This document shows, piece after piece, positions 52,365 through 63,440 of a stretch of 64,000 nt of DNA; positions within the stretch are counted from its first letter, which is position 1, and each line of letters opens with the position of its first letter. The notes under the pieces were generated by a model, which searched no databases, was not told the DNA's origin, and was given only the letters and a program-made list of their open reading frames with translations. Origin of the DNA: Candidatus Marinacidobacterales bacterium (GTDB lineage: Bacteria > Acidobacteriota > Vicinamibacteria > Marinacidobacterales > SMYC01); contig CBDCYI010000005.1 in NCBI GenBank assembly GCA_965224085.1, forward strand, positions 1,504,001-1,568,000, read 5' to 3'. Position numbers and translations under genes: made by a program.

Positions 52365-53378
52365 ATGGGCCAAACGATACTCGTCACCGGCGGAGCCGGG
52401 TTCATCGGCAGCGGCTTCATTCACTACCTCACGACCGCTCATCCTGACTGGTTGATCCTCAATATCGACAAGCTGACTTATGCCGGGAATCTCGAGAACC
52501 TTCGTGAAATCGAGGACCGGCCCAACTATCGTTTCATCCAAGGCGACATTTGTGACCGGGAAACGGTCGAGCCGCTCGTCGCCGAAGCCGATTGGCTCGT
52601 GAACTTCGCGGCGGAAACGCACGTCGATCGTTCGATACACGACGCCGGCGACTTCATCATCACGGATGTATTCGGAACCTACGTCCTGCTCGAAGCGTTT
52701 CGCGCGGCGGATCGCCCCAAGCGTTTTATCCAGATCTCGACCGACGAAGTCTACGGTGCCATCGAAACGGGCTCGGCGCGCGAAACCGACATTCTCGCGC
52801 CGCGCAATCCCTATTCCGCGAGCAAGCTGGGCGCCGATCGCCTCGCTTATTCCTACTTCGTCACCTACGGTGTTCCCGTGATCGTGACGCGGGCATCCAA
52901 TAATTACGGCCCACGTCAATATCCCGAGAAAGTGATCCCGCTCTTCGTGACGAACGCCCTCGAAGACCGTCCACTGCCACTATACGGAGACGGCCTGCAA
53001 ATGCGCGACTGGCTCCACGTCGACGACCACTGTCGCGCGATCGACCTAGTGCTCGAGCACGGTATCGACGGCGAAACCTACAATATCGGCGGCGGGCACG
53101 AGCTCACCAACCTGGAGCTCACGAAGACCATCCTTGCACTTCTTGGAAAACCCGAAAGCCTCATCGAGCCCGTCACCGATCGCCCGGGCCACGACCGGCG
53201 CTATAGCGTGGACACCGAAAAGCTGTGCGGTCTCGGATGGAATCCGGAGATACCCTTCGCGAGCGGCCTCGAGGGCACGGTTCGGTGGTATCGCGAGAAC
53301 CCGGAATGGTGGCAGGCGATCAAGAACAAAAGCAAGGAGTATCATGAATTTCAGAAAAAGCACTACGGCACATCCTAG
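52365..53378 (+). CDS. rfbB: dTDP-glucose 4,6-dehydratase
   Basis: VTGGAGFIGS, DKLTYAGN, AAETHVDRSI, STDEVYG, YSASK, DRPGHDRRY. Confidence 0.96.
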   Translation: MGQTILVTGGAGFIGSGFIHYLTTAHPDWLILNIDKLTYAGNLENLREIEDRPNYRFIQGDICDRETVEPLVAEADWLVNFAAETHVDRSIHDAGDFIITDVFGTYVLLEAFRAADRPKRFIQISTDEVYGAIETGSARETDILAPRNPYSASKLGADRLAYSYFVTYGVPVIVTRASNNYGPRQYPEKVIPLFVTNALEDRPLPLYGDGLQMRDWLHVDDHCRAIDLVLEHGIDGETYNIGGGHELTNLELTKTILALLGKPESLIEPVTDRPGHDRRYSVDTEKLCGLGWNPEIPFASGLEGTVRWYRENPEWWQAIKNKSKEYHEFQKKHYGTS

Positions 53379-54000: not shown

Positions 54001-54903
54001 CTAATATCTCCAGCTGAGCGTGTTGGCTAGTCGCTCGCCGCCTTTCAGGGTGACGGTCGCCGTCAAGACAACGGCGCCTTGTTCGTGGGCGGGCGTCCAT
54101 CGTCCCCCAACAGAATAGAGCACGGCGCTTTCACGCGCGCCGACATGGGCGATATCGAGGGGCACGCCGCCGCCCGTTTTCTTGCCCGCGAAGGACCAGT
54201 CGAGACGCAGGCTCGTCGCGTCCAAAGCACGGTTGCTGCGATTTACGAGACGGACCTCGAGCTCGTAACTTTGGCCTAGCGCGACTTTGTCCGGGCTCAG
54301 CTCGACCAGAAGATGGGCGGGGCTGGCAGGAAGCGCGGTGGCCCGGTGAACCTTTTCGTCTTCGACGACGAAGCCGGGGACTTCGCTCCATGCCGCCGTC
54401 GGGTCTTCGAATCTTGTTTCGCCGAGCCGAAACCGCTTCTCCGGGCTTTCGATGCGTTGGCTCGACTCGGACGGGGACCGCTCCTCGATAGCGTCGAGCA
54501 GATCCTCACGTTGTGTAGCGAGCTCGGACCAAAGAGCCTGATTGGCCTCGCGAAGCGCCGCGAGCTCTTTTTTGGGGTCGCGGATGGAGGCGATCTTGCG
54601 GTTGGCTTCCTTAATGGCCGTGAGATCCCGGGTGGCGGCGTTTCGAATCGCCGTCAGCTCTCGCTGCTGCCGAGTAAGGTCGAGCGACAGCGCTCGCGTC
54701 CTCGTGTGCGAGTCTTCGTTCACCGCCGAAACGTCGCGCTGCAGCTGCCACATCTGATCGCCGAGTCGCCAGCCGTAAAAACCGACCAACCCCACGGAAA
54801 CGAGCGCGCTCAGACCGATCACAGACAGCGCAGCCACGAGATAGACGTGATTCCGCCGCAGCTGCTCCCTAAGCTCCTCGAGTTCTTGCTCTAGTTTGCT
54901 CAG
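54001..54903 (-). CDS. Hypothetical membrane-anchored coiled-coil protein
   Basis: Frame open from about 54903; one TM segment, coiled coil, beta-rich C-terminal domain; start uncertain. Confidence 0.6.
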   Translation of the reverse strand: MSKLEQELEELREQLRRNHVYLVAALSVIGLSALVSVGLVGFYGWRLGDQMWQLQRDVSAVNEDSHTRTRALSLDLTRQQRELTAIRNAATRDLTAIKEANRKIASIRDPKKELAALREANQALWSELATQREDLLDAIEERSPSESSQRIESPEKRFRLGETRFEDPTAAWSEVPGFVVEDEKVHRATALPASPAHLLVELSPDKVALGQSYELEVRLVNRSNRALDATSLRLDWSFAGKKTGGGVPLDIAHVGARESAVLYSVGGRWTPAHEQGAVVLTATVTLKGGERLANTLSWRY

Positions 54904-55214: not shown

Positions 55215-55379
55215 CTAGTCCCCTGGAACAGAGGTTCGTGGCCTAAGGCTCGAGGTCATTTTGTGGGCTGGCAAGGCGTGACGACGAAGTCATATTGGGA
55301 TATTTCGAGGAGAAACAACGCAGCCAGCGCGCAAAAGAGCCCGAGATTTAGGTTACGAATCTCTGTTCCAGGGGACTAG
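55215..55379. mobile_element. MITE (165 bp including CTAG at both ends)
   Basis: About 38-bp imperfect TIRs CTAGTCCCCTGGAACAGAG(G/A)TTCGT(GG/AA)CCTAA; no ORF; sits in the 3' end of the esterase gene. Confidence 0.85.
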
Positions 55380-56099
55380 CTCATCGAGATATTGCGGGAA
55401 CATCTTCCGCCACGTGACCCAGTCGTGGTGCCATTGCTTGCCCCAAGAATCGACACGGTTCGGAATGCCTTTCGCGCCCAGGAGTTTCGCCATCCCCCAA
55501 GACTCCTCGATGTCTTCGGCCTCACCTTCCCCGGAAGCCAAAAGCACGAAACGCGACCTGAGCTTCTCCAGAAGCTCTCCTTCGAGCCCAGGAAGGAAAT
55601 GAAGCGGCGAGGAGAAATGCCAGTCCTCGGTAGCCTCGGCCCGCAAGAAGCGGTCGAGATTGTAGGTCCCGCTCAAACACACGGCATGGGTGAACGCGTC
55701 CGGGTAGCGGGCCAAAGCCGCTAATGCGTTGAACGCGCCAATGGAAGATCCCGCAGTGATGATACCGATATCATTCGACTGACAGTCTTTCCGGATCGCG
55801 GGGACGAGCTCGTGATACACAAACTGCTCAAACTGATTCTGAACCCGCATGCGGTACGCCGGCGTTCCCTCTTCCATCAACAGCGACTGCCCCGCAACGC
55901 TTTCGCAGGAAAAAATCTTCACACGACCAGCTTCAAGAAGAGGTCCTATAGCGTCTATGACGTGGAAGCGTTCGATCTCCTCGGCATCACCGCCCGCTGT
56001 CGGGAACAGGAGCACCGGCGTTCCCATCTCGCCCCAGCGCACAACACCCACGTCGGTACCGAGGCGCTGTGAGTGCCAGACGGTCTTCTGCTTCGTCAC
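55353..56099 (-). CDS. Putative esterase (alpha/beta hydrolase)
   Basis: GTPVLLFPTAGG, GSSIG nucleophile elbow, HDWVTWR. Confidence 0.88.
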   Translation of the reverse strand: MTKQKTVWHSQRLGTDVGVVRWGEMGTPVLLFPTAGGDAEEIERFHVIDAIGPLLEAGRVKIFSCESVAGQSLLMEEGTPAYRMRVQNQFEQFVYHELVPAIRKDCQSNDIGIITAGSSIGAFNALAALARYPDAFTHAVCLSGTYNLDRFLRAEATEDWHFSSPLHFLPGLEGELLEKLRSRFVLLASGEGEAEDIEESWGMAKLLGAKGIPNRVDSWGKQWHHDWVTWRKMFPQYLDELVPWNRDS

Positions 56100-57266
56100 C
56101 TATTCGTAAACCATCCAAAGCGGTCCGGGAAAGAGCCATGAAAGCCCCTCGCGCAGGCGATCCCGCCAATTCTCCCAGTTGTGCCCATCCCGAGCTTCGA
56201 CATAGCGGACCTCCATTCCCGTCTTTTGCAGGAACGGAACGATCGATCGATTCTCGTAGATATTCGCTTCATAGGTCCCGCAGCTGATGAAGACTTTCTC
56301 GCTCACGGATTTAGGCTCCGCGCGATAGGCGTTCATGAACTCGACCACAGGATCGAAGGCCGGACCACGCTGATGCTCGCCGATGTCGCTGAACGCGAAC
56401 GAGCCCGATTGCAGCAGAAGACGTCCGTAAAAACCGGGATACCGCCAGGCTGTCGAGAGCGAAGCTACCGCGCCGAAGCTAGCGCCCATGAGTCCGCGAT
56501 AGCGCGGCTGGTTGAGAAGCGGAAGCTCCGATTCGAGAAACGGGACGAGCTCCTCCGTGAGGTAGCGAGCGTGGGGTTGATGGTTCGCGTATTCGGCCAA
56601 GCGTTTTTCCGGATGGGTGAGCGCCACGATCATGCCCGGGATCTCGAGCCGATAAATCAAGTTGTCGAGCACCGTCTTCATGCCCGAATATCTCAGATAT
56701 TCCGGTCCATCATGGACGAGCAGCAACGGATAGCGCCGCGTTGTCCGGAATCGCGCCGGCAAATAGAGCATCACTTTTCTCGCACTACCGAGCGCCGGGC
56801 TCTCGAAAACCATTTCTTTGAGCGTACCCGGGCGCGCCTCCGGGTCTGGCTGGGCCCATTCCGGTATCTCGTATCCCGCTGTATGGCACACCGAGTTCTC
56901 GCCGAACGGATCCGAGGCTTTGTGACTGTTCAGCGGATCGAGCAGCCATTCCATTTTTCCGTGATGAGTTCTCTGGAGCTTGTACTCGATACGTGAGTCC
57001 GGAGGGAGTTCCATGACGAGATACCACAGGTCGGTTCCGACGACGTGCTTGAACTGCTGGGACGAAGGAAGACCGTAGATCCAATGTCCTAGATAGACGG
57101 CTTCCGCAGGTCCTCGGTAGACGAACGTCGTGTAGGAGCCTTCGACGAGGGGAAACTCGTGCGACTCAATGAACGCGTCGATCTCCCCGCGCGTCGGTTT
57201 CTTGTCAGAGACGTCGTGGATCGCGAGCTCCCGCTCGGTGATATCCTCTCGCTCTCGCGTTACCAC
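56100..57266 (-). CDS. Fes-like esterase with an N-terminal Ig/CBM48-like domain
   Basis: TFVYRG..LWY..EYKL..DPLN..FGENS N-domain; VMLYLP, YPLLLVHDG, GASFG, GHNWENWR. Confidence 0.88.
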   Translation of the reverse strand: MVTREREDITERELAIHDVSDKKPTRGEIDAFIESHEFPLVEGSYTTFVYRGPAEAVYLGHWIYGLPSSQQFKHVVGTDLWYLVMELPPDSRIEYKLQRTHHGKMEWLLDPLNSHKASDPFGENSVCHTAGYEIPEWAQPDPEARPGTLKEMVFESPALGSARKVMLYLPARFRTTRRYPLLLVHDGPEYLRYSGMKTVLDNLIYRLEIPGMIVALTHPEKRLAEYANHQPHARYLTEELVPFLESELPLLNQPRYRGLMGASFGAVASLSTAWRYPGFYGRLLLQSGSFAFSDIGEHQRGPAFDPVVEFMNAYRAEPKSVSEKVFISCGTYEANIYENRSIVPFLQKTGMEVRYVEARDGHNWENWRDRLREGLSWLFPGPLWMVYE

Positions 57267-58204
57267 GATGTCACTTTCTCCACGGTGCCGTTGGGGCTGA
57301 GACGAAGCACTTCTTTTTTCGCCGAGAACGTCTCGCCATCGAACGCGATGCAGTCGCCGTCCCCCATGACGACGCAATAATCGGGAAGAAACCGGCTCGC
57401 GAACGAGGCGACCCCATCCTCCTCACTCAAATCGAGACGTTTTTTGCCATCGGGAAGCGCCACGAGTCGCGGGCAGAGACCGAGCCCCTCCTCCAAGACC
57501 TCGGCATTGCCTGGGCCTTGCGGGGGATGGTCGTGAAAGAGGACCACCCGCTCAGTGAGCACCATAGCGCCCGCCGACCACGCGACGATCGTCTTGCCTT
57601 GCGCAAGCTCTTGCATCCCGAACAGACGAAGCCGGTTGAGAAGAACCGCAACATGTCCTCCGGTGATCACTAGCGCAGGCGCGCCTTTGAGAATCGTGCG
57701 TATCTCCTCGCGCTCGCGTGCGATCGCTTCCCGCTCGAGAGGCTTCCACGTCGTCTCGAACTCTCCTCGAATATCGAGAATGCGCTTCAAATGCCAGACG
57801 TCGAGCTCTCGCAGTTGCTCGATCGCATGTTCTTGTTCCGGACGCAGTAGCTCTTCGTGCCCTTCGGCCTTTAGAAGGCGCCTAACGCTCTCGACGACAT
57901 ACGAAAGGCGCAAGTCGTAAAGCCCTTCGATCTCCCGCAGCTTGCGCTGCATCTCACGATGAGCCTCACGGAATTTCGGGTCGTCCCGGAATACCCGATC
58001 GGCGCGGCGGTAGAGTTCGAGATCCAGTGAGCGGCCGCCGAGATACCCGTCGAGCTCTTCGTCCTCGCCTTCACGCTCTTGCCAACCGGCAGTCACGACG
58101 GCGATCGGGCCGTCGGGTAGATCGAGCTTCTCGTAGAGTTCGCCTAGAGTCGGCCTGTGGTATTGCGGCCCCAAGAGCCAGACCGTGCGGTTTTTGGATG
58201 TCAC
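57260..58204 (-). CDS. Peptidase S51/cyanophycinase-like class I GATase-fold protein
   Basis: VTAGWQERE, TGGHV, WSAGAM nucleophile motif. Confidence 0.75.
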   Translation of the reverse strand: MTSKNRTVWLLGPQYHRPTLGELYEKLDLPDGPIAVVTAGWQEREGEDEELDGYLGGRSLDLELYRRADRVFRDDPKFREAHREMQRKLREIEGLYDLRLSYVVESVRRLLKAEGHEELLRPEQEHAIEQLRELDVWHLKRILDIRGEFETTWKPLEREAIAREREEIRTILKGAPALVITGGHVAVLLNRLRLFGMQELAQGKTIVAWSAGAMVLTERVVLFHDHPPQGPGNAEVLEEGLGLCPRLVALPDGKKRLDLSEEDGVASFASRFLPDYCVVMGDGDCIAFDGETFSAKKEVLRLSPNGTVEKVTSW

Positions 58205-59424
58205 TCTGCTCGGACCTTCACGGTTTCGCCGACGCGGTTCAACATTTGGCGGAGCTCATCGAATTTCGGATGGCGCATGCGGATCCACGCATTCGCCATA
58301 TAGCCGGCCTCGACGGGCTGGGTCGGTTCTCCCGCACGCGGAAGATGATAGTCGATGATCCACTGACCGAGCTCGCTCTCGATCGAGGCGATGCCCTCGT
58401 AGCCGATGATCCTTCCATCTCGTTCGGGACGCAGCGTGATGATACCGGCCGCGTAGGCACGCGACGCCTTCTGGCTCGTGCTCTTGGCTGTGACGGCGAC
58501 GGCCCACTCGCGATAGAGGTCCATCTCGTTGCCGACACTATAGAGATCCCAGGCGCCGACACCTGGCGGCCGGCAGCCGATCTCCGAGAACTTGAGACCC
58601 TTTGGCCCGAAAAACCACTCCATGTGGGTCGACGAGGTTTCGATCCCGAGCAGCGAGATGACTTTCTTGCCCATCTCCCGCACTTGCTTGTAGTCAGGGG
58701 CGGTATCCACTTGATTCGTCGCGATGAACTGCGGCGAGATCCAACGCTCGCGCATCGCTTCGAGAACATTCGGGTAGTAGTGTGAGATGAAGTCGTGAGC
58801 CACTTCACCATCGATGGTGATGGTGTCGTAAAAGCCCTCATGGCCCTCGATGAACTCCTCGACCGCCACGCTCGCGCCTTGATCCACTCCCATCTCGTGG
58901 AGCGCAGCGTCGAGCGCGTCGTCGTTATCGGCACGGGCGGTGCCGGCCGCACCCGCCCCGCTCGGCGGTTTAATGATAACGGGATAGCCCACGGCCGCAA
59001 CGAAATCGCGAATTTCCGATCGGGAGCTGCTGCCCATCGATGGCGCGCAAGCAATGCCACCCTCGCGAAGGACTTGTTTCATCGCGGGCTTGTCGCGGCA
59101 CAAGAAGGCTGTCTTCGTGGACGTCCCCGCGATAGCGCACGCCTCCCGCACATGGGCGGCAGGCAAGATATGCGCCTCGATCGTCGCTTCGAGCCGATCG
59201 ATGGGGAGCTTCGATTGAAGCCAGCGAACCTTCTCAGAAACAGCGCCCTCGTCCACGACCGACGGCACTTGCTCGTAGTGGGTCAACCAGCGCCGGAGCT
59301 CGTCATCGAGCGCTTCTTTCGGGCGCTCGCCAACGCCGGTAACGGTTGCGCCGACTTCGTGGAGGGCTCGGGCGAACTCCCGCTGGTTCTTGGGAAAGCA
59401 AGGCTCGATAAGAACGACATGCAC
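58201..59424 (-). CDS. ATP-grasp ligase A
   Basis: RDKPAMK, YPVIIKP..GAG, EEFIEGHE, THMEWF, SEIGCRPPG. Confidence 0.9.
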   Translation of the reverse strand: MHVVLIEPCFPKNQREFARALHEVGATVTGVGERPKEALDDELRRWLTHYEQVPSVVDEGAVSEKVRWLQSKLPIDRLEATIEAHILPAAHVREACAIAGTSTKTAFLCRDKPAMKQVLREGGIACAPSMGSSSRSEIRDFVAAVGYPVIIKPPSGAGAAGTARADNDDALDAALHEMGVDQGASVAVEEFIEGHEGFYDTITIDGEVAHDFISHYYPNVLEAMRERWISPQFIATNQVDTAPDYKQVREMGKKVISLLGIETSSTHMEWFFGPKGLKFSEIGCRPPGVGAWDLYSVGNEMDLYREWAVAVTAKSTSQKASRAYAAGIITLRPERDGRIIGYEGIASIESELGQWIIDYHLPRAGEPTQPVEAGYMANAWIRMRHPKFDELRQMLNRVGETVKVRAE

Positions 59425-59528
59425 GGCGGCGCCCCACTACAGAGTAGAAGAAGCGCCAATCTATCAGGAACTAGTGACGTTTGGCGACAACCCGCGCGAC
59501 GCTTTATTCCCCGAGCTCTTGAAGCACT

Positions 59529-60944
59529 CTATGGGCCCGAGAGTCGCCGATAGATCGCTACATAGGTCTCAGCCTGGCGTTCCCAGGAAAAATCCTGCGC
59601 CATCCCGTTCGCGACGAGCCGGCGCCAGGACGGGCGGTCACGGTAGAGCTCGAGTGCAGCACCGAGGGCCCAGCGGACACCGTCGGGCTTGTAGTGCTCG
59701 AACACGATTCCCGTGCCCTCGCCGGTAGCGGGATCGAAGAGCTTCACGCTATCAGCAAGACCGCCCGTCTTGCGAACGATAGGAACCGTCCCATATTTGA
59801 GGCTGTACATCTGGTTGAGACCACAGGGCTCGTAGCGGGAAGGCATGAGAAACATGTCCGCCGCCGCCTCGATCCAATGCGCGAGCGGGTTGTGAAAGCC
59901 ACGATAGAAACAGAGGCGATCGGGGTAGTCTCTTTGGAGCGAGGCAAAAAACTCTTCGTATGGCGCCTCGCCGGTGCCGAGGACGACGAGTGACCAGGAC
60001 TCGCGTGACAAGAGCTCGGGAAGAGTCTCGACGAGCAAGTCGAGGCCTTTTTGCGCGGACAAGCGCGTCACCATGCCGACGAGCGGCACATCCTCCGGTT
60101 GCGAAAGGCTCAACTCCTTCAAAAGAGCTTTTTTGTTCTGGTTCTTTCCGTCGAGATTCTTTTCCGTGTAGCGGAACGGAATGAGCGTGTCATTCGCGGG
60201 GCTCCACGTTTCGTAGTCCACGCCGTTCAGAATCCCGACGAGCGCAGCGCGTCGACGTCGCAGGAGCGCATCGAGACCGTATCCTTGCTCGGGGGTCTGG
60301 ATCTCCTCGGCATATGTCGGGCTCACGGTGGAAAGATGATCCGCGTGCACGAGCCCGGTCTTGAGGAAATTGACGATACCGTCCTTTGAATCCCGGGCGT
60401 CGAACGACGACGGGCCTTCGATGCCAATGGCTTTCACGATTTCCGCGAAAAAAACACCTTGGTAGGCGAGGTTGTGTATCGTGAAGAGCGTCTTCGCCTT
60501 GTCAAAGAGGCTCGATGCGGCCCTCTTCAAAAGCAGGGGCACGAGCGCCGTTTGCCAATCGTTCAGATGAAAAATCTCCGGCGCAAAGGCCAAATGGTGG
60601 CAGGCCTCGAGCACCGCACGGCAAAAAAACAAGAAGCGGAACGGCTCGTCCTCGTCGTTCGTATATATGGCCTCTCGTGCGAAAAATCGAGGAGCATCAA
60701 TGAAGTAGACCGGCACGCTGGATCGCGGGAGCATCCCCTTTCTGAGCGCGAAGCCCTCCGTGCTTACTTCGACGGGTTCGAGTCCGTGCGCGGCGCCATC
60801 GATGCTGCCATAGAGCGGCACGAAAACACGCACGTCGTGTCCGAGCTTCCCGAGCGTTCGGGGAAGCGCCTCAGCCACATCGGCGAGGCCGCCTGTCTTC
60901 GCGAAGGGCGTGAGCTCCGACGCGAGAAAAGCGATCCGGAGCAT
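59529..60944 (-). CDS. glgA: Glycogen synthase (GT5)
   Basis: KTGGLADV, HLNDWQT, TIHNLAYQG, TVSPTYA, MPSRYEPCGLNQMY, TGGLAD. Confidence 0.96.
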   Translation of the reverse strand: MLRIAFLASELTPFAKTGGLADVAEALPRTLGKLGHDVRVFVPLYGSIDGAAHGLEPVEVSTEGFALRKGMLPRSSVPVYFIDAPRFFAREAIYTNDEDEPFRFLFFCRAVLEACHHLAFAPEIFHLNDWQTALVPLLLKRAASSLFDKAKTLFTIHNLAYQGVFFAEIVKAIGIEGPSSFDARDSKDGIVNFLKTGLVHADHLSTVSPTYAEEIQTPEQGYGLDALLRRRRAALVGILNGVDYETWSPANDTLIPFRYTEKNLDGKNQNKKALLKELSLSQPEDVPLVGMVTRLSAQKGLDLLVETLPELLSRESWSLVVLGTGEAPYEEFFASLQRDYPDRLCFYRGFHNPLAHWIEAAADMFLMPSRYEPCGLNQMYSLKYGTVPIVRKTGGLADSVKLFDPATGEGTGIVFEHYKPDGVRWALGAALELYRDRPSWRRLVANGMAQDFSWERQAETYVAIYRRLSGP

Positions 60945-60969
60945 GAGAGGGATTATAATCCCTCCCATG
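60942..60969. promoter_or_regulatory. Symmetric bidirectional -10 promoter with probable leaderless starts
   Basis: CATGAGAGGGATTATAATCCCTCCCATG; perfect 18-bp palindrome 60947-60964; TATAAT on each strand lies 7 nt before an ATG. Confidence 0.8.
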
Positions 60970-62190
60970 ACGAACGTGGTTTTCGTCGCGCCCTATTTCG
61001 CCGAAACGACGCTTCGCTTCATAAGCGCTGCGGCGGGTCTTCACAACGTACGACTCGGCCTCATCAGCCAGGATCCCGAAGAGAAGCTCCCCGAGAGTTT
61101 GCGTAAACAGCTGGCGGGCCACTACCGCGTCGAAGCGGGTCTTTCGCGAAGCGCCATCGAGAAGGCCACGCGCGCGATGAAGCGCACCTTCGGCTCGGTC
61201 GATCGTTTGCTCGGAACGCTCGAGCAGCTTCAAGTGCCCCTTGGTCAAATTCGCGACGAGCTCGGTATCTCCGGCATGGGCGCCGAAGCCGCGCGGAATT
61301 TTCGTGACAAAGCGCTCATGAAAACGCTGCTCGCACGCCATGGGCTCCCTTGCGCACGCCATCGCCTCGTGCGCGACACGAGAGAGGCATTCGCCTTCGT
61401 GCGAGAGGTCGGCTTCCCGCTCGTCATAAAGCCGCCCGCGGGCGCAGGGGCGCAGTCGACATTTCGCCTCGATGACGATCGGGCGCTCTCGGAATGTCTC
61501 GCTTCGATGCCGCCCTCGGATACGAGACCAACGCTCCTCGAAGAGTTCATCGTCGGGGAGGAACATTCTTTCGACAGCGTGGTGCTCGCCGGAGAGCTCA
61601 CGTGGTACTCGATCAACGATTACTACCCCGCACCCATCGAAGTCTTGCGCCATCCTTGGATTCAGTGGAGCGTGGTCTCGCCCATCGAGCTCGACCATCC
61701 GCGTTATTCGGCCATCCGGAAGGTCGCGGGCCCAGCTCTATCCGTTCTCGGTCTCGAGAACGGCCTGAGCCACATGGAGTGGTTCGCGCGCACAGACGGA
61801 AGCGTTGCGATCTCGGAGGTGGGCGCCCGACCTCCCGGTGCGCAGTTCGCGACGCTTCTTTCTTATGCCCATGATTTTGATTTCTACAGCGCTTGGGCGC
61901 GGCTCATGGTCGAGGACGTCTTCGAGCCGCCGCCACGGCGATACGCCGTGGGTGCGGCCTATTTGCGTGGTCAGGGCACGGGCGCACGCGTTACCGGCAT
62001 TCGCGGGCTCGAACAAGCGCAGCGCGACGTCGGCGATCTCGTCGCCGAGGTCAAGCTTCCGGAGCTAGGCCAATCGCCGTCGGGAACTTACGAAGGCGAG
62101 GGCTTTGTCATCCTGCGTCACGAAGACACCGATGTCGTGAAGCGAGGCATCAAACGTGTCCTCGAGCAAGTCTACGTGCAGCTGGCCTAA
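60967..62190 (+). CDS. ATP-grasp ligase B
   Basis: FRDKALMK, FPLVIKP..GAG, EEFIVGEE, SHMEWF, SEVGARPPG. Confidence 0.9.
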   Translation: MTNVVFVAPYFAETTLRFISAAAGLHNVRLGLISQDPEEKLPESLRKQLAGHYRVEAGLSRSAIEKATRAMKRTFGSVDRLLGTLEQLQVPLGQIRDELGISGMGAEAARNFRDKALMKTLLARHGLPCARHRLVRDTREAFAFVREVGFPLVIKPPAGAGAQSTFRLDDDRALSECLASMPPSDTRPTLLEEFIVGEEHSFDSVVLAGELTWYSINDYYPAPIEVLRHPWIQWSVVSPIELDHPRYSAIRKVAGPALSVLGLENGLSHMEWFARTDGSVAISEVGARPPGAQFATLLSYAHDFDFYSAWARLMVEDVFEPPPRRYAVGAAYLRGQGTGARVTGIRGLEQAQRDVGDLVAEVKLPELGQSPSGTYEGEGFVILRHEDTDVVKRGIKRVLEQVYVQLA

Positions 62191-62207
62191 GCCCCAAAGA
62201 GGGTCCT

Positions 62208-63440
62208 ATGAACGTCCTCATGATGAGTCCGGGTTTTCCGGCGGAGATGCCTTTTTTCACGCGCGGGCTCGCGCGCGTTGGCGCAAACGCCATCGGAATA
62301 GGTGATCAAGCGCAATCGGCGCTCCCCGAGCTCGCGCGCGATAGCCTCAGCGCTTACTTCCAAATCCCGTCTTTCACCGACACTGACGAAGACGCGATCT
62401 TTCGGCAAGTCGAGGCCATCCACCAAAAAGCGCGACTCGACCGCATCGAATGCCTCTGGGAGCCTTTCATGCTCCTCGCGGCGAAGCTTCGGGAGCATCT
62501 CGGCATAGCGGGTATGACGGTCGAAGAGACGATCCCGTTCCGTGACAAAGAGATCATGAAAAAGCGGCTCGACGACGCAGGTATCCGTACGCCGCGACAT
62601 GCGAGCGTCACCACCGTCGAGGGCTGCCGGAAGGCCGCGGCCGCGATCGGTTTTCCGGAAAGGTCGGTCGTCGTCAAGCCCATCGCGGGGGCCGGAGCGG
62701 CCGACACCTATCACGTACGAAGCGCCGACGAGCTCGAAGCCGTGCTCCCAGCGCTCGGCCACGTGGCCGAAGTGAGCGTCGAGGAGTTCATTGACGGCGA
62801 CGACTATACCTACGAGACGATTTGCATCGACGGCAAGATCGAGCATTTCAGCATCTCTTTTTATCGACCTCGAGCGCTTCAAGCACGGACTCATGAGTGG
62901 ATAAGCCCGCAAACCGTCGTTGTGCGCCTTGTTCAGGACGAAGCGCTTCGACCCGGCTGCAAGATGGGCGAGGCGGTCGTAAAAGCATTGAACTTTAAGA
63001 CGGGCTTTACGCACATGGAGTGGTTCAAAACCCCTTCCGGTGAAGCCGTGTTCGGCGAGATCGCCGCTCGGCCACCGGGTGCGCACCTCGTCGACCTCAT
63101 CAACTACGCCTCTGATATCGATGTTTTCACAGGCTGGGCCGAGGCCATTTGCCACGGCCGCTTCACTCAAACCGTCGATCGCAAATACAACGCCGCCTGG
63201 ATCTACAAACGCGCCGAGGGCGAGGGTGTCATCCACAAGATCGACGGCCTCGCGACTTTGATGGCCGAGCTCGGCGAGCACGTGATGTTATTGGACCTCC
63301 TTCCGATAGGGGCGCCCCGCCGCAACTGGAAACAAACCCTCGTTTCAGACGGGATGATCATCGTGCGCCACCCCAACCTCGAGCGCACGTTGGAGATCGC
63401 CGATCGCTTCGCAACCGAGCTCAGAATGTATGCGCGCTGA
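62208..63440 (+). CDS. ATP-grasp ligase C
   Basis: FRDKEIMK, VVKPIAGAG, EEFIDG, THMEWF, GEIAARPPG. Confidence 0.9.
   Translation: MNVLMMSPGFPAEMPFFTRGLARVGANAIGIGDQAQSALPELARDSLSAYFQIPSFTDTDEDAIFRQVEAIHQKARLDRIECLWEPFMLLAAKLREHLGIAGMTVEETIPFRDKEIMKKRLDDAGIRTPRHASVTTVEGCRKAAAAIGFPERSVVVKPIAGAGAADTYHVRSADELEAVLPALGHVAEVSVEEFIDGDDYTYETICIDGKIEHFSISFYRPRALQARTHEWISPQTVVVRLVQDEALRPGCKMGEAVVKALNFKTGFTHMEWFKTPSGEAVFGEIAARPPGAHLVDLINYASDIDVFTGWAEAICHGRFTQTVDRKYNAAWIYKRAEGEGVIHKIDGLATLMAELGEHVMLLDLLPIGAPRRNWKQTLVSDGMIIVRHPNLERTLEIADRFATELRMYAR

Follow-up and report, generated by a model that had tools for sequence, protein, structure and literature searches.

A cluster of seven genes at positions 55353-63440 of the DNA stretch analysed here (64,000 nucleotides of the Candidatus Marinacidobacterales bacterium contig CBDCYI010000005.1; hereafter the window) is best explained as the larger part of a module that is conserved widely among bacteria and shares a pathway with glycogen synthesis. 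Its seven intact open reading frames (ORFs) encode two PF00756 esterases, an S51-fold protein, three ATP-grasp ligases and the glycogen synthase GlgA. We describe below the gene families with their intact catalytic motifs, the synteny and co-inheritance of the genes, and their link to GlgA. A possible function, put forward tentatively, is that four ATP-grasp ligases, three encoded in the window and a fourth, termed X, elsewhere in the same genome, reversibly attach amino-acid or short-peptide groups to glycogen via ester (and amide) bonds, and that carbohydrate esterase (CE)-like and S51-type hydrolases erase this decoration.

Organisation of the gene cluster

An earlier reading of the sequence, in the following the first-pass annotation, had placed seven ORFs in this region and had noted abutting or overlapping junctions at 58201/58204, 57260/57266 and 56099/56100. 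All seven are present at these coordinates and intact, and the cluster is composed as follows (aa, amino acids; bp, base pairs):

estS, 55353..56099, minus strand: 248-aa alpha/beta-hydrolase esterase without N-domain; PF00756, 42.9 bits
estL, 56100..57266, minus strand: esterase of 388 aa, about 150 of them in a beta-rich N-domain; PF00756, 81.8 bits
S51-like gene, 57260..58204, minus strand: cyanophycinase/peptidase E-like fold; PF03575, 26.0 bits
agA, 58201..59424, minus strand: ATP-grasp ligase; PF02222
glgA, 59529..60944, minus strand: ADP-glucose-type glycogen synthase; longest ORF to 60968, likely start ATG at 60944
Palindrome GGGATTATAATCCC, 60949..60962, no strand: perfect, 14 bp, between the likely starts of glgA and agB
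agB, 60967..62190, plus strand: ATP-grasp ligase paralogue; longest ORF from 60910, likely start ATG at 60967
agC, 62208..63440, plus strand: ATP-grasp ligase paralogue with ATPgrasp_N domain

The junctions were likewise confirmed in the sequence: agA and the S51 gene overlap by 4 nucleotides (58201-58204), the GTG start of estL at 57266, as read from the sequence, overlaps the stop codon of the S51 gene (57262-57260), and the end of estL at 56100 abuts the start of estS at 56099. The longest ORFs of the divergent genes glgA and agB overlap by 59 nucleotides at their 5′-ends, and therefore both cannot be used in full; alignment with the respective families places the likely starts at 60944 and 60967. 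The palindrome GGGATTATAATCCC between them, which reads TATAAT on either strand and is flanked by GAGAGGG and CCCTCCC, accounts for the near-identical N-terminal peptides of the two longest ORFs and is possibly a shared operator or a bidirectional promoter element.

The gene order is conserved in many phyla

Relatives of agA were scanned in one genome per species, yielding at least 568 stretches, and the best 80 of these were analysed as loci. They carry approximately nine phylum labels, the taxon labels being Acidobacteriota, Myxococcota (with Myxococcus, Archangium, Sorangium and Enhygromyxa), Gemmatimonadota, Planctomycetota, Binatia, Eisenbacteria, Krumholzibacteriia, Acidimicrobiia and Mycobacteriales. 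Genes were counted by tblastn with the seven window proteins; many loci end at contig edges, and the counts are given for all 80 loci and for the 45 that extend over at least 5 kilobases (kb) on both flanks:

S51 gene: 62 of 80 loci; 40 of the 45 well-flanked loci
estL: 59 of 80; 41 of 45
estS: 48 of 80; 34 of 45
agB: 40 of 80 (many truncated); 30 of 45
agC: 33 of 80; 26 of 45
glgA: 49 of 80; 28 of 45

The recurring order is agC-agB-(glgA)-agA-S51-estL-[X]-estS, where X denotes a gene of approximately 412 aa that is located between estL and estS in most loci and was found in 50 of the 80. The most conserved member is agA, with 62-95% identity across phyla. As the same order is kept in 80 loci from many phyla, the arrangement lies far beyond chance.

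In addition, the ORFs of the 38 loci of at least 20 kb were compared all against all. The neighbours of the module comprise a protein of glutamate-cysteine-ligase family 2 (GCS2) with CBS domains (25 of 80 loci), an AstE/AspA-like deacylase (13 loci) and the glycogen branching enzyme GlgB (9 loci). The full order GlgB-agC-agB-GlgA-agA-S51-estL-X-estS-GCS2CBS-AstE is found in loci labelled Binatia or Planctomycetota, and an unclassified bacterium (L007) shows the same order minus glgA. In the genome of the window, orthologues of the GCS2-CBS protein (57% identity) and of the AstE-like protein (44% identity) are encoded at two other places on contig 4. Thus, the gene list of the first-pass annotation holds for its seven members and was incomplete, since it had missed the fourth ligase X as well as the frequent neighbours GlgB, GCS2-CBS and AstE/AspA-like deacylase.

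No conserved small ORF (35-170 aa) was found in the module or within 1.5 kb of it across the 80 loci. The largest family of small ORFs near the module comprises 5 loci and looks like an off-frame artefact. This result argues against a mechanism involving a carrier protein or a ribosomally synthesised and post-translationally modified peptide (RiPP).

The module genes are inherited together

Furthermore, 151 Acidobacteriota genomes, evenly drawn, were searched. Orthologues of agA (at least 59% identity) are present in 8 of them, orthologues of X in exactly these 8, and the S51 gene in these 8 with one additional partial match in genome G020; each of the agA and X searches yielded a ninth genome with a paralogue-level match of 34% only. 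This co-occurrence holds where the genes reside on different contigs or, as in genome G098, 487 kb apart. The GCS2-CBS gene was detected in 29 of the 151 genomes, namely all 8 with the module and 21 without it, and therefore represents a frequent companion and not a specific member of the module. The genomes of this sample are related to each other, and the counts are descriptive, without a statistical test.

Within the class to which the window belongs, agA, X and the S51 gene are absent from all 11 sampled genomes, and GlgA is found in 8 of the 11. The distribution of the module is thus patchy, and it may have entered this lineage by horizontal transfer. Unpublished genomes or loci (L052, G004, G029 and G054) enter the counts, with no claim depending on them alone, and the alignment of X likewise includes a sequence from an unpublished genome.

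A distinct GlgA lineage accompanies the module

The first-pass annotation had regarded the locus as one system built around glycogen synthase. The window GlgA matches the ADP-glucose-dependent synthase model TIGR02095 with 534 bits (cut-off 328.45), aligned from residue 11, as well as PF08323 with 250.7 bits; it shows the full-length GT5 plus GT1 architecture and contains the KTGGL motif, of which K24, G26, G27 and L28 are invariant among 36 module-linked GlgA proteins. In 34 of the 80 loci glgA is located at most 500 bp upstream of agA, 19 times co-directional and 15 times divergent, and in several phyla the gap between the co-directional genes is as small as 6-35 bp.

A maximum-likelihood tree of GlgA with 52 rows (a quick IQ-TREE version with midpoint root, in which rows L069 and L065 were retained with an internal stop in their tblastn-derived translations) unites 40 linked GlgA proteins from six phylum labels, including that of the window, in one clade (support of 99 in the SH-like approximate likelihood ratio test) that contains none of the 5 second GlgA copies of these genomes. 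A position near the module is also found for four Gemmatimonadota and three Nannocystaceae-type (Myxococcota) GlgA rows that do not belong to this clade; therefore, more than one GlgA lineage came to sit beside it. In line with the tree, linked GlgA proteins are 46-64% identical across phyla and 40-44% identical to the second copy of their own genome, the corresponding values for the window GlgA being 46-52% and 42%.

Two GlgA proteins above the cut-off were detected in this genome and in four others checked. GlgA occurs in 98 of the 151 sampled Acidobacteriota genomes and in 8 of the 8 with the module, and the other seven module-bearing genomes contain a single GlgA, encoded beside agA (5) or beside an agB/agC paralogue (2). 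Since the sole GlgA adjoins a module ligase in 7 of these 7 genomes, the linked enzyme is often the only glycogen synthase of the cell. Taken together, the synteny in 49 of 80 loci, the distinct lineage of linked GlgA and the position of the sole GlgA beside a module ligase bear out the inclusion of glgA in one system.

Two further observations concern glgA itself. The second GlgA of this genome (G000:C11:785298-786722; L084:9296-10744) is full-length, scores 533.6 bits with TIGR02095 and is encoded next to M48 and M50 peptidase genes and a transposase, with no other glg genes at this place. In the closest relative among the 80 loci (94% agA identity), glgA is broken by ISL3-family and DDE_Tnp_1 transposase genes (L002:6120-9697); a remnant of the starch synthase domain is fused to the second ORF, agC was not detected, and the module seems to be decaying in this organism.

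Four predicted ATP-grasp ligases of two types

The proteins encoded by agA, agB and agC yield generic ATP-grasp matches (PF02222, approximately 30-32 bits, above the cut-off in all three). For agC the score is 30.3 bits, and there is an additional match to ATPgrasp_N (PF18130, 28.6 bits). As the first-pass annotation had noted, they are paralogues that have RDK..MK, HMEWF and RPPG in common, and these motifs are readable in all three translations. agA retains intact Lys, EEF, HMEWF and E..RPPG motifs, and the nucleotide- and metal-binding motifs are intact in all three ligases. agA shows 35% identity with agC and 32% with agB, and the genome encodes no further paralogue.

None of the three reaches an NCBIfam equivalog level. 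Among solved structures, agA comes closest to L-amino-acid ligases (4wd3, 1.2e-14; BL00235, 3vot, 1.8e-08; BacD, 3vmm/3wnz, 7e-05), and the predicted ligases have the ATP-grasp core and the nucleotide/Mg motifs in common with this group. A complex prediction for agA and the linked GlgA scored 0.07, compared to a mark of 0.32, which is evidence neither way.

The protein X has no Pfam match, and its sole NCBIfam match is Ddl with 20 bits (cut-off 262). A profile of 31 X sequences searched against the PDB gave weak ATP-grasp matches only. Its structural model (predicted local distance difference test score, pLDDT, 87.2) matches ArgX/LysX, RimK, ITPK1, Ddl/VanA and graspetide cyclases with E-values of approximately 1e-9, and shows beyond the ATP-grasp fold a predicted C-terminal helical bundle of about 110 aa. 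Moreover, X falls into a protein-atlas cluster of 8,601 'putative ATP-grasp' proteins. Judged by sequence and modelled fold, the module thus comprises four ATP-grasp ligases of two types, three resembling L-amino-acid ligases and one with a RimK/LysX-like fold.

In the genome of the window, X has moved to another contig (G000:C4:1809525-1810736; L082:9517-10752), where a copy 57% identical to that of Myxococcus adjoins a DDE_Tnp_ISAZ013 transposase and an M20 amidohydrolase. The latter was rejected as a part of the module, because none of the 80 loci has a counterpart of it. In the close relatives L001, L003 and L004, too, estL directly adjoins estS without X between them.

Esterases and an S51-like protein as candidate hydrolases

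The family assignments of the first-pass annotation were corroborated by hidden Markov models, with matches to PF00756, PF03575, PF02222 and TIGR02095, and for the S51 fold by a structural model. estS contains the nucleophile motif GSSIG, and its homologues are encoded downstream of estL or X in 48 of the 80 loci. estL contains GASFG, likewise of the GxSxG type. Its match to Enterochelin_N (PF11806), 21.3 bits, stays below the cut-off of 27.1, and with 94.6 bits (cut-off 222) it does not reach the level of the enterochelin esterase Fes equivalog (NF007758). Of the proteins with solved structures, estL is most closely related to CE1 ferulic acid esterases with a CBM48 at the N-terminus (8bbp/6rzn, 3e-11), to Fes (2b20, 4e-10) and to 7b5v. 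The N-domain had been considered Ig/CBM48-like, which was not established: it lacks a match to PF02922, and when its profile (29 sequences) was compared with 4 neighbouring GlgB proteins, it aligned at their CBM48 region with an hhalign probability of 0.5% and an E-value of 0.11.

The S51-like protein passes the cut-off of PF03575 (26.0 bits; cut-off 23.9). Its AlphaFold2 model (pLDDT 89.7) places it in the S51 fold, as all 20 Foldseek matches in the PDB with E-values of 0.001 or below are S51 enzymes, among them an actinobacterial peptidase, pseudo-CphB, cyanophycinase and peptidase E. In the model a two-helix hairpin of approximately 80 residues (helices 76-112 and 117-153) is inserted into this fold.

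The catalytic triad of S51 enzymes is Ser-His-Glu. A profile alignment to peptidase E of D. radiodurans pairs AWSAGAM with the SAG serine and LPH with the PHA histidine. Of 29 homologues, 27 retain a Ser at the nucleophile position and only 15 have His at the canonical His position, and hence the canonical triad is not constant in this subfamily. In the window protein the canonical His position is Asp, and the canonical triad is incomplete. The S51-like assignment holds for the fold; the missing His might be replaced by an FHD motif (H224, D225), which is nearly invariant.

Neighbourhood of the cluster

Two overlapping ORFs without Pfam match, one of 278 aa on the minus strand and one of 193 aa on the plus strand, occupy positions 54001-54894. 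Homologues of the former (54001-54837) are encoded downstream of estS in the relatives L001 (88%) and L004 (51%), and it may be a clade-specific neighbour of the module. Between 54900 and 55350, that is over approximately 450 bp downstream of estS, there is no ORF of note. Membership in the module was rejected for this 278-aa ORF, for the epimerase at 52365-53378, for the aminotransferase from 63447 to the end and for the penicillin amidase beyond the window, because all four are common only to the closest relatives.

What the module may do

The first-pass annotation had proposed a make-and-break logic for the locus, and the combination of ligases and hydrolases found here fits it. We assign a probability of about 0.4 to a mechanism in which amino-acid or short-peptide substituents are transferred to the linked glucan by the ligases, in part as esters, and removed by the hydrolases. 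The chemical steps, the substrates and the attachment to the glucan we infer as follows. The linked GlgA, together with GlgB, would make the alpha-1,4/1,6-glucan. The four ATP-grasp ligases would activate amino-acid-type carboxylates as acyl phosphates and build a short, defined amino-acid or peptide substituent, with at least one of its bonds being an ester with a hydroxyl group of glucose. Ester bonds would be cut by the two CE1/Fes-like esterases, and amide bonds by the S51-fold enzyme and, in loci that encode it, the AstE-like enzyme. Synthesis and consumption of glycogen would thereby be accompanied by addition and removal of the decoration.

The synteny with glgA, the several linked GlgA lineages, the co-inheritance of agA, X and the S51 gene and the neighbouring GlgB speak for this mechanism. 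An ester is invoked because two esterases are conserved, and the presence of five different types of ligase suggests a defined product assembled in several steps, and not a homopolymer. Ester formation is known for ATP-grasp enzymes, examples being MdnB and PsnB, which synthesise the macrolactones of graspetides, and synthetases of this type are among the structural matches of X. The kinship of estL to CBM48-bearing CE1 carbohydrate esterases, as judged from sequence comparison, may likewise count in favour of a glucan ester.

Several points weigh against this mechanism. At neutral pH, aminoacyl esters are chemically unstable. The S51, L-amino-acid-ligase, AstE and GCS2 families are all characteristic of the metabolism of free peptides, and the GCS2-CBS gene also occurs in 21 genomes without the module. 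The N-domain of estL shows a sub-threshold match to Enterochelin_N and no significant match to the CBM48 of the neighbouring GlgB. No glgA was found in the stretch analysed in 31 of the 80 loci and in 17 of the 45 well-flanked ones, and in L002 agA, the S51 gene and estL persist beside a disrupted glgA. Finally, the part of the 2024 Chemical Reviews survey of prokaryotic alpha-glucan enzymes that was covered contains neither esterified, acylated nor esterase and describes no esterified or aminoacylated glycogen.

Part of this evidence would suit a free amino-acid-based compound, such as a cyanophycin-like polymer, a depsipeptide or a peptide solute, which is not attached to the glucan and only co-regulated with glycogen as a companion store of nitrogen or carbon. 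The nearest relatives of the ligases join free amino acids, cyanophycinase and peptidase E have the S51 fold, and AstE/AspA-like and GCS2-type enzymes are frequent neighbours. The module persists without adjacent glgA in the 31 loci and with the broken copy of L002, and it is often split into two sub-operons, glgA-agA and S51-estL-X. However, a pure polyamide leaves the two conserved esterases unexplained, and the architecture of cyanophycin synthetase is absent. Moreover, the adjacency of glgA and agA within 6-35 bp and the recruitment of several GlgA lineages exceed, in our judgement, the usual co-regulation of stores. We consider a free compound the main alternative to the decoration of glycogen, and somewhat less probable than it.

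Modification of a protein is improbable. The ligases would add RimK/LysX-like amino-acid tails to the glycogen machinery or a carrier protein, from which the hydrolases would remove them, in keeping with ArgX/LysX and RimK, which act on protein C-termini, as the best structural matches of X (E-value of approximately 1e-9, TM-score 0.6 by target). However, the 80 loci share no small ORF (35-170 aa) in the module or within 1.5 kb of it, the linked GlgA is devoid of an acidic C-terminal tail, and the other three ligases resemble enzymes acting on free amino acids. Slightly more improbable still is that X, as at least one ATP-grasp member, is a glucan or sugar kinase and that the module sets solubility or turnover of glycogen via phosphate or other non-amino-acid groups. 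ITPK1 ranks fourth among the structural matches of X, and the nucleotide-binding domains of glucan-water dikinase adopt an ATP-grasp-type fold; X matches ligases equally well, though, no phosphatase is conserved in the module, and the peptidase-type hydrolases would be left without a role. The probability left after the decoration of glycogen and a free compound falls to protein modification, phosphorylation or something not yet conceived.

That the genes are unrelated neighbours, juxtaposed by chance or in one lineage, is refuted to a residue of next to nothing: the sharing of the aminotransferase, penicillin amidase, epimerase and ORF 54001-54837 with the closest Acidobacteriota relatives only does indicate that some local synteny reflects descent, but seven genes keep their order across about nine phylum labels, and in the Acidobacteriota sample agA, X and the S51 gene occur together in 8 of 8 genomes, the other 143 having none of them apart from the partial S51 match in G020.

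Bacterial glycogen metabolism is treated as a closed set of enzymes, that is GlgC, A, B, P, X and the GlgE route. Here, at least eight genes travel with those of glycogen synthase and branching enzyme in at least several hundred loci of many phyla, including culturable myxobacteria such as strains of Enhygromyxa salina (L011, L054) and Myxococcus (L069), and their five kinds of ligase and three or four hydrolases have no assigned product. The genes hint at a link between glycogen and a hitherto undescribed amino-acid chemistry. Should the product be attached to the glucan, polysaccharide modification would gain a new class and ATP-grasp enzymes a new use, and the storage granule would carry nitrogen in addition to carbon, or a chemical mark that sets its solubility and accessibility. 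Should the product be free, carbon storage would be coupled to a reserve or stress compound that has not been described.

Comparison with known systems

Cyanophycin metabolism (CphA1 and the S51 enzyme CphB) resembles the module in combining an ATP-grasp ligase and an S51-fold hydrolase in one locus with a make-and-break logic. In contrast, the module lacks the CphA architecture, as TIGR02068 and NF010623 match the ATP-grasp core only, with 29-37 bits overall (cut-offs 850 and 877) and 31-36 bits for TIGR02068, and none of the module proteins contains a Mur-ligase-like domain. It has instead four separate ligases, two esterases and GlgA/GlgB, and its S51 protein differs from CphB by the long helical hairpin and, in the window, by the absence of the canonical His.

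L-amino-acid ligases are the best solved matches of agA and share its three-domain size of approximately 400 aa, as well as the ATPgrasp_N domain seen in agC, whereas the BacD model yields 24-30 bits only (cut-off 850). To our knowledge, L-amino-acid ligases are encoded in antibiotic or dipeptide clusters and not with glycogen genes. RimK and LysX/ArgX are the top matches of the modelled structure of X. At 15-16% identity, without Pfam match and with the extra helical bundle of about 110 aa, this likeness is nevertheless one of fold only, and no conserved carrier or substrate gene is located near X. For a graspetide, a type of RiPP, a precursor peptide would be expected among the small ORFs of 35-170 aa in the module or within 1.5 kb, and none is conserved in the 80 loci.

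With CE1-CBM48 esterases and Fes, estL has the two-domain layout and the GxSxG nucleophile motif in common; unlike these, the proteins are cytoplasmic by context, and no genes for xylan or siderophore metabolism surround them. The classical GlgC-GlgA-GlgB pathway is matched by the linked GlgA, which passes the ADP-glucose model and contains KTGGL, and by GlgB in 9 of the 80 loci, but here glgA is flanked by ligases and hydrolases.

In the covered part of the 2024 Chemical Reviews survey, the terms ATP-grasp and esterase do not occur. Our literature search likewise found no system of ligases, hydrolases and glycogen genes of such composition, although a 2009 survey of amidoligases might mention one. 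The view of the first-pass annotation that no pathway of this composition has been characterised is thus in agreement with the literature searched. Provisionally, we regard the system as new, since it departs in defining features from every system named above, and as one assembled from enzyme families that are individually all known.

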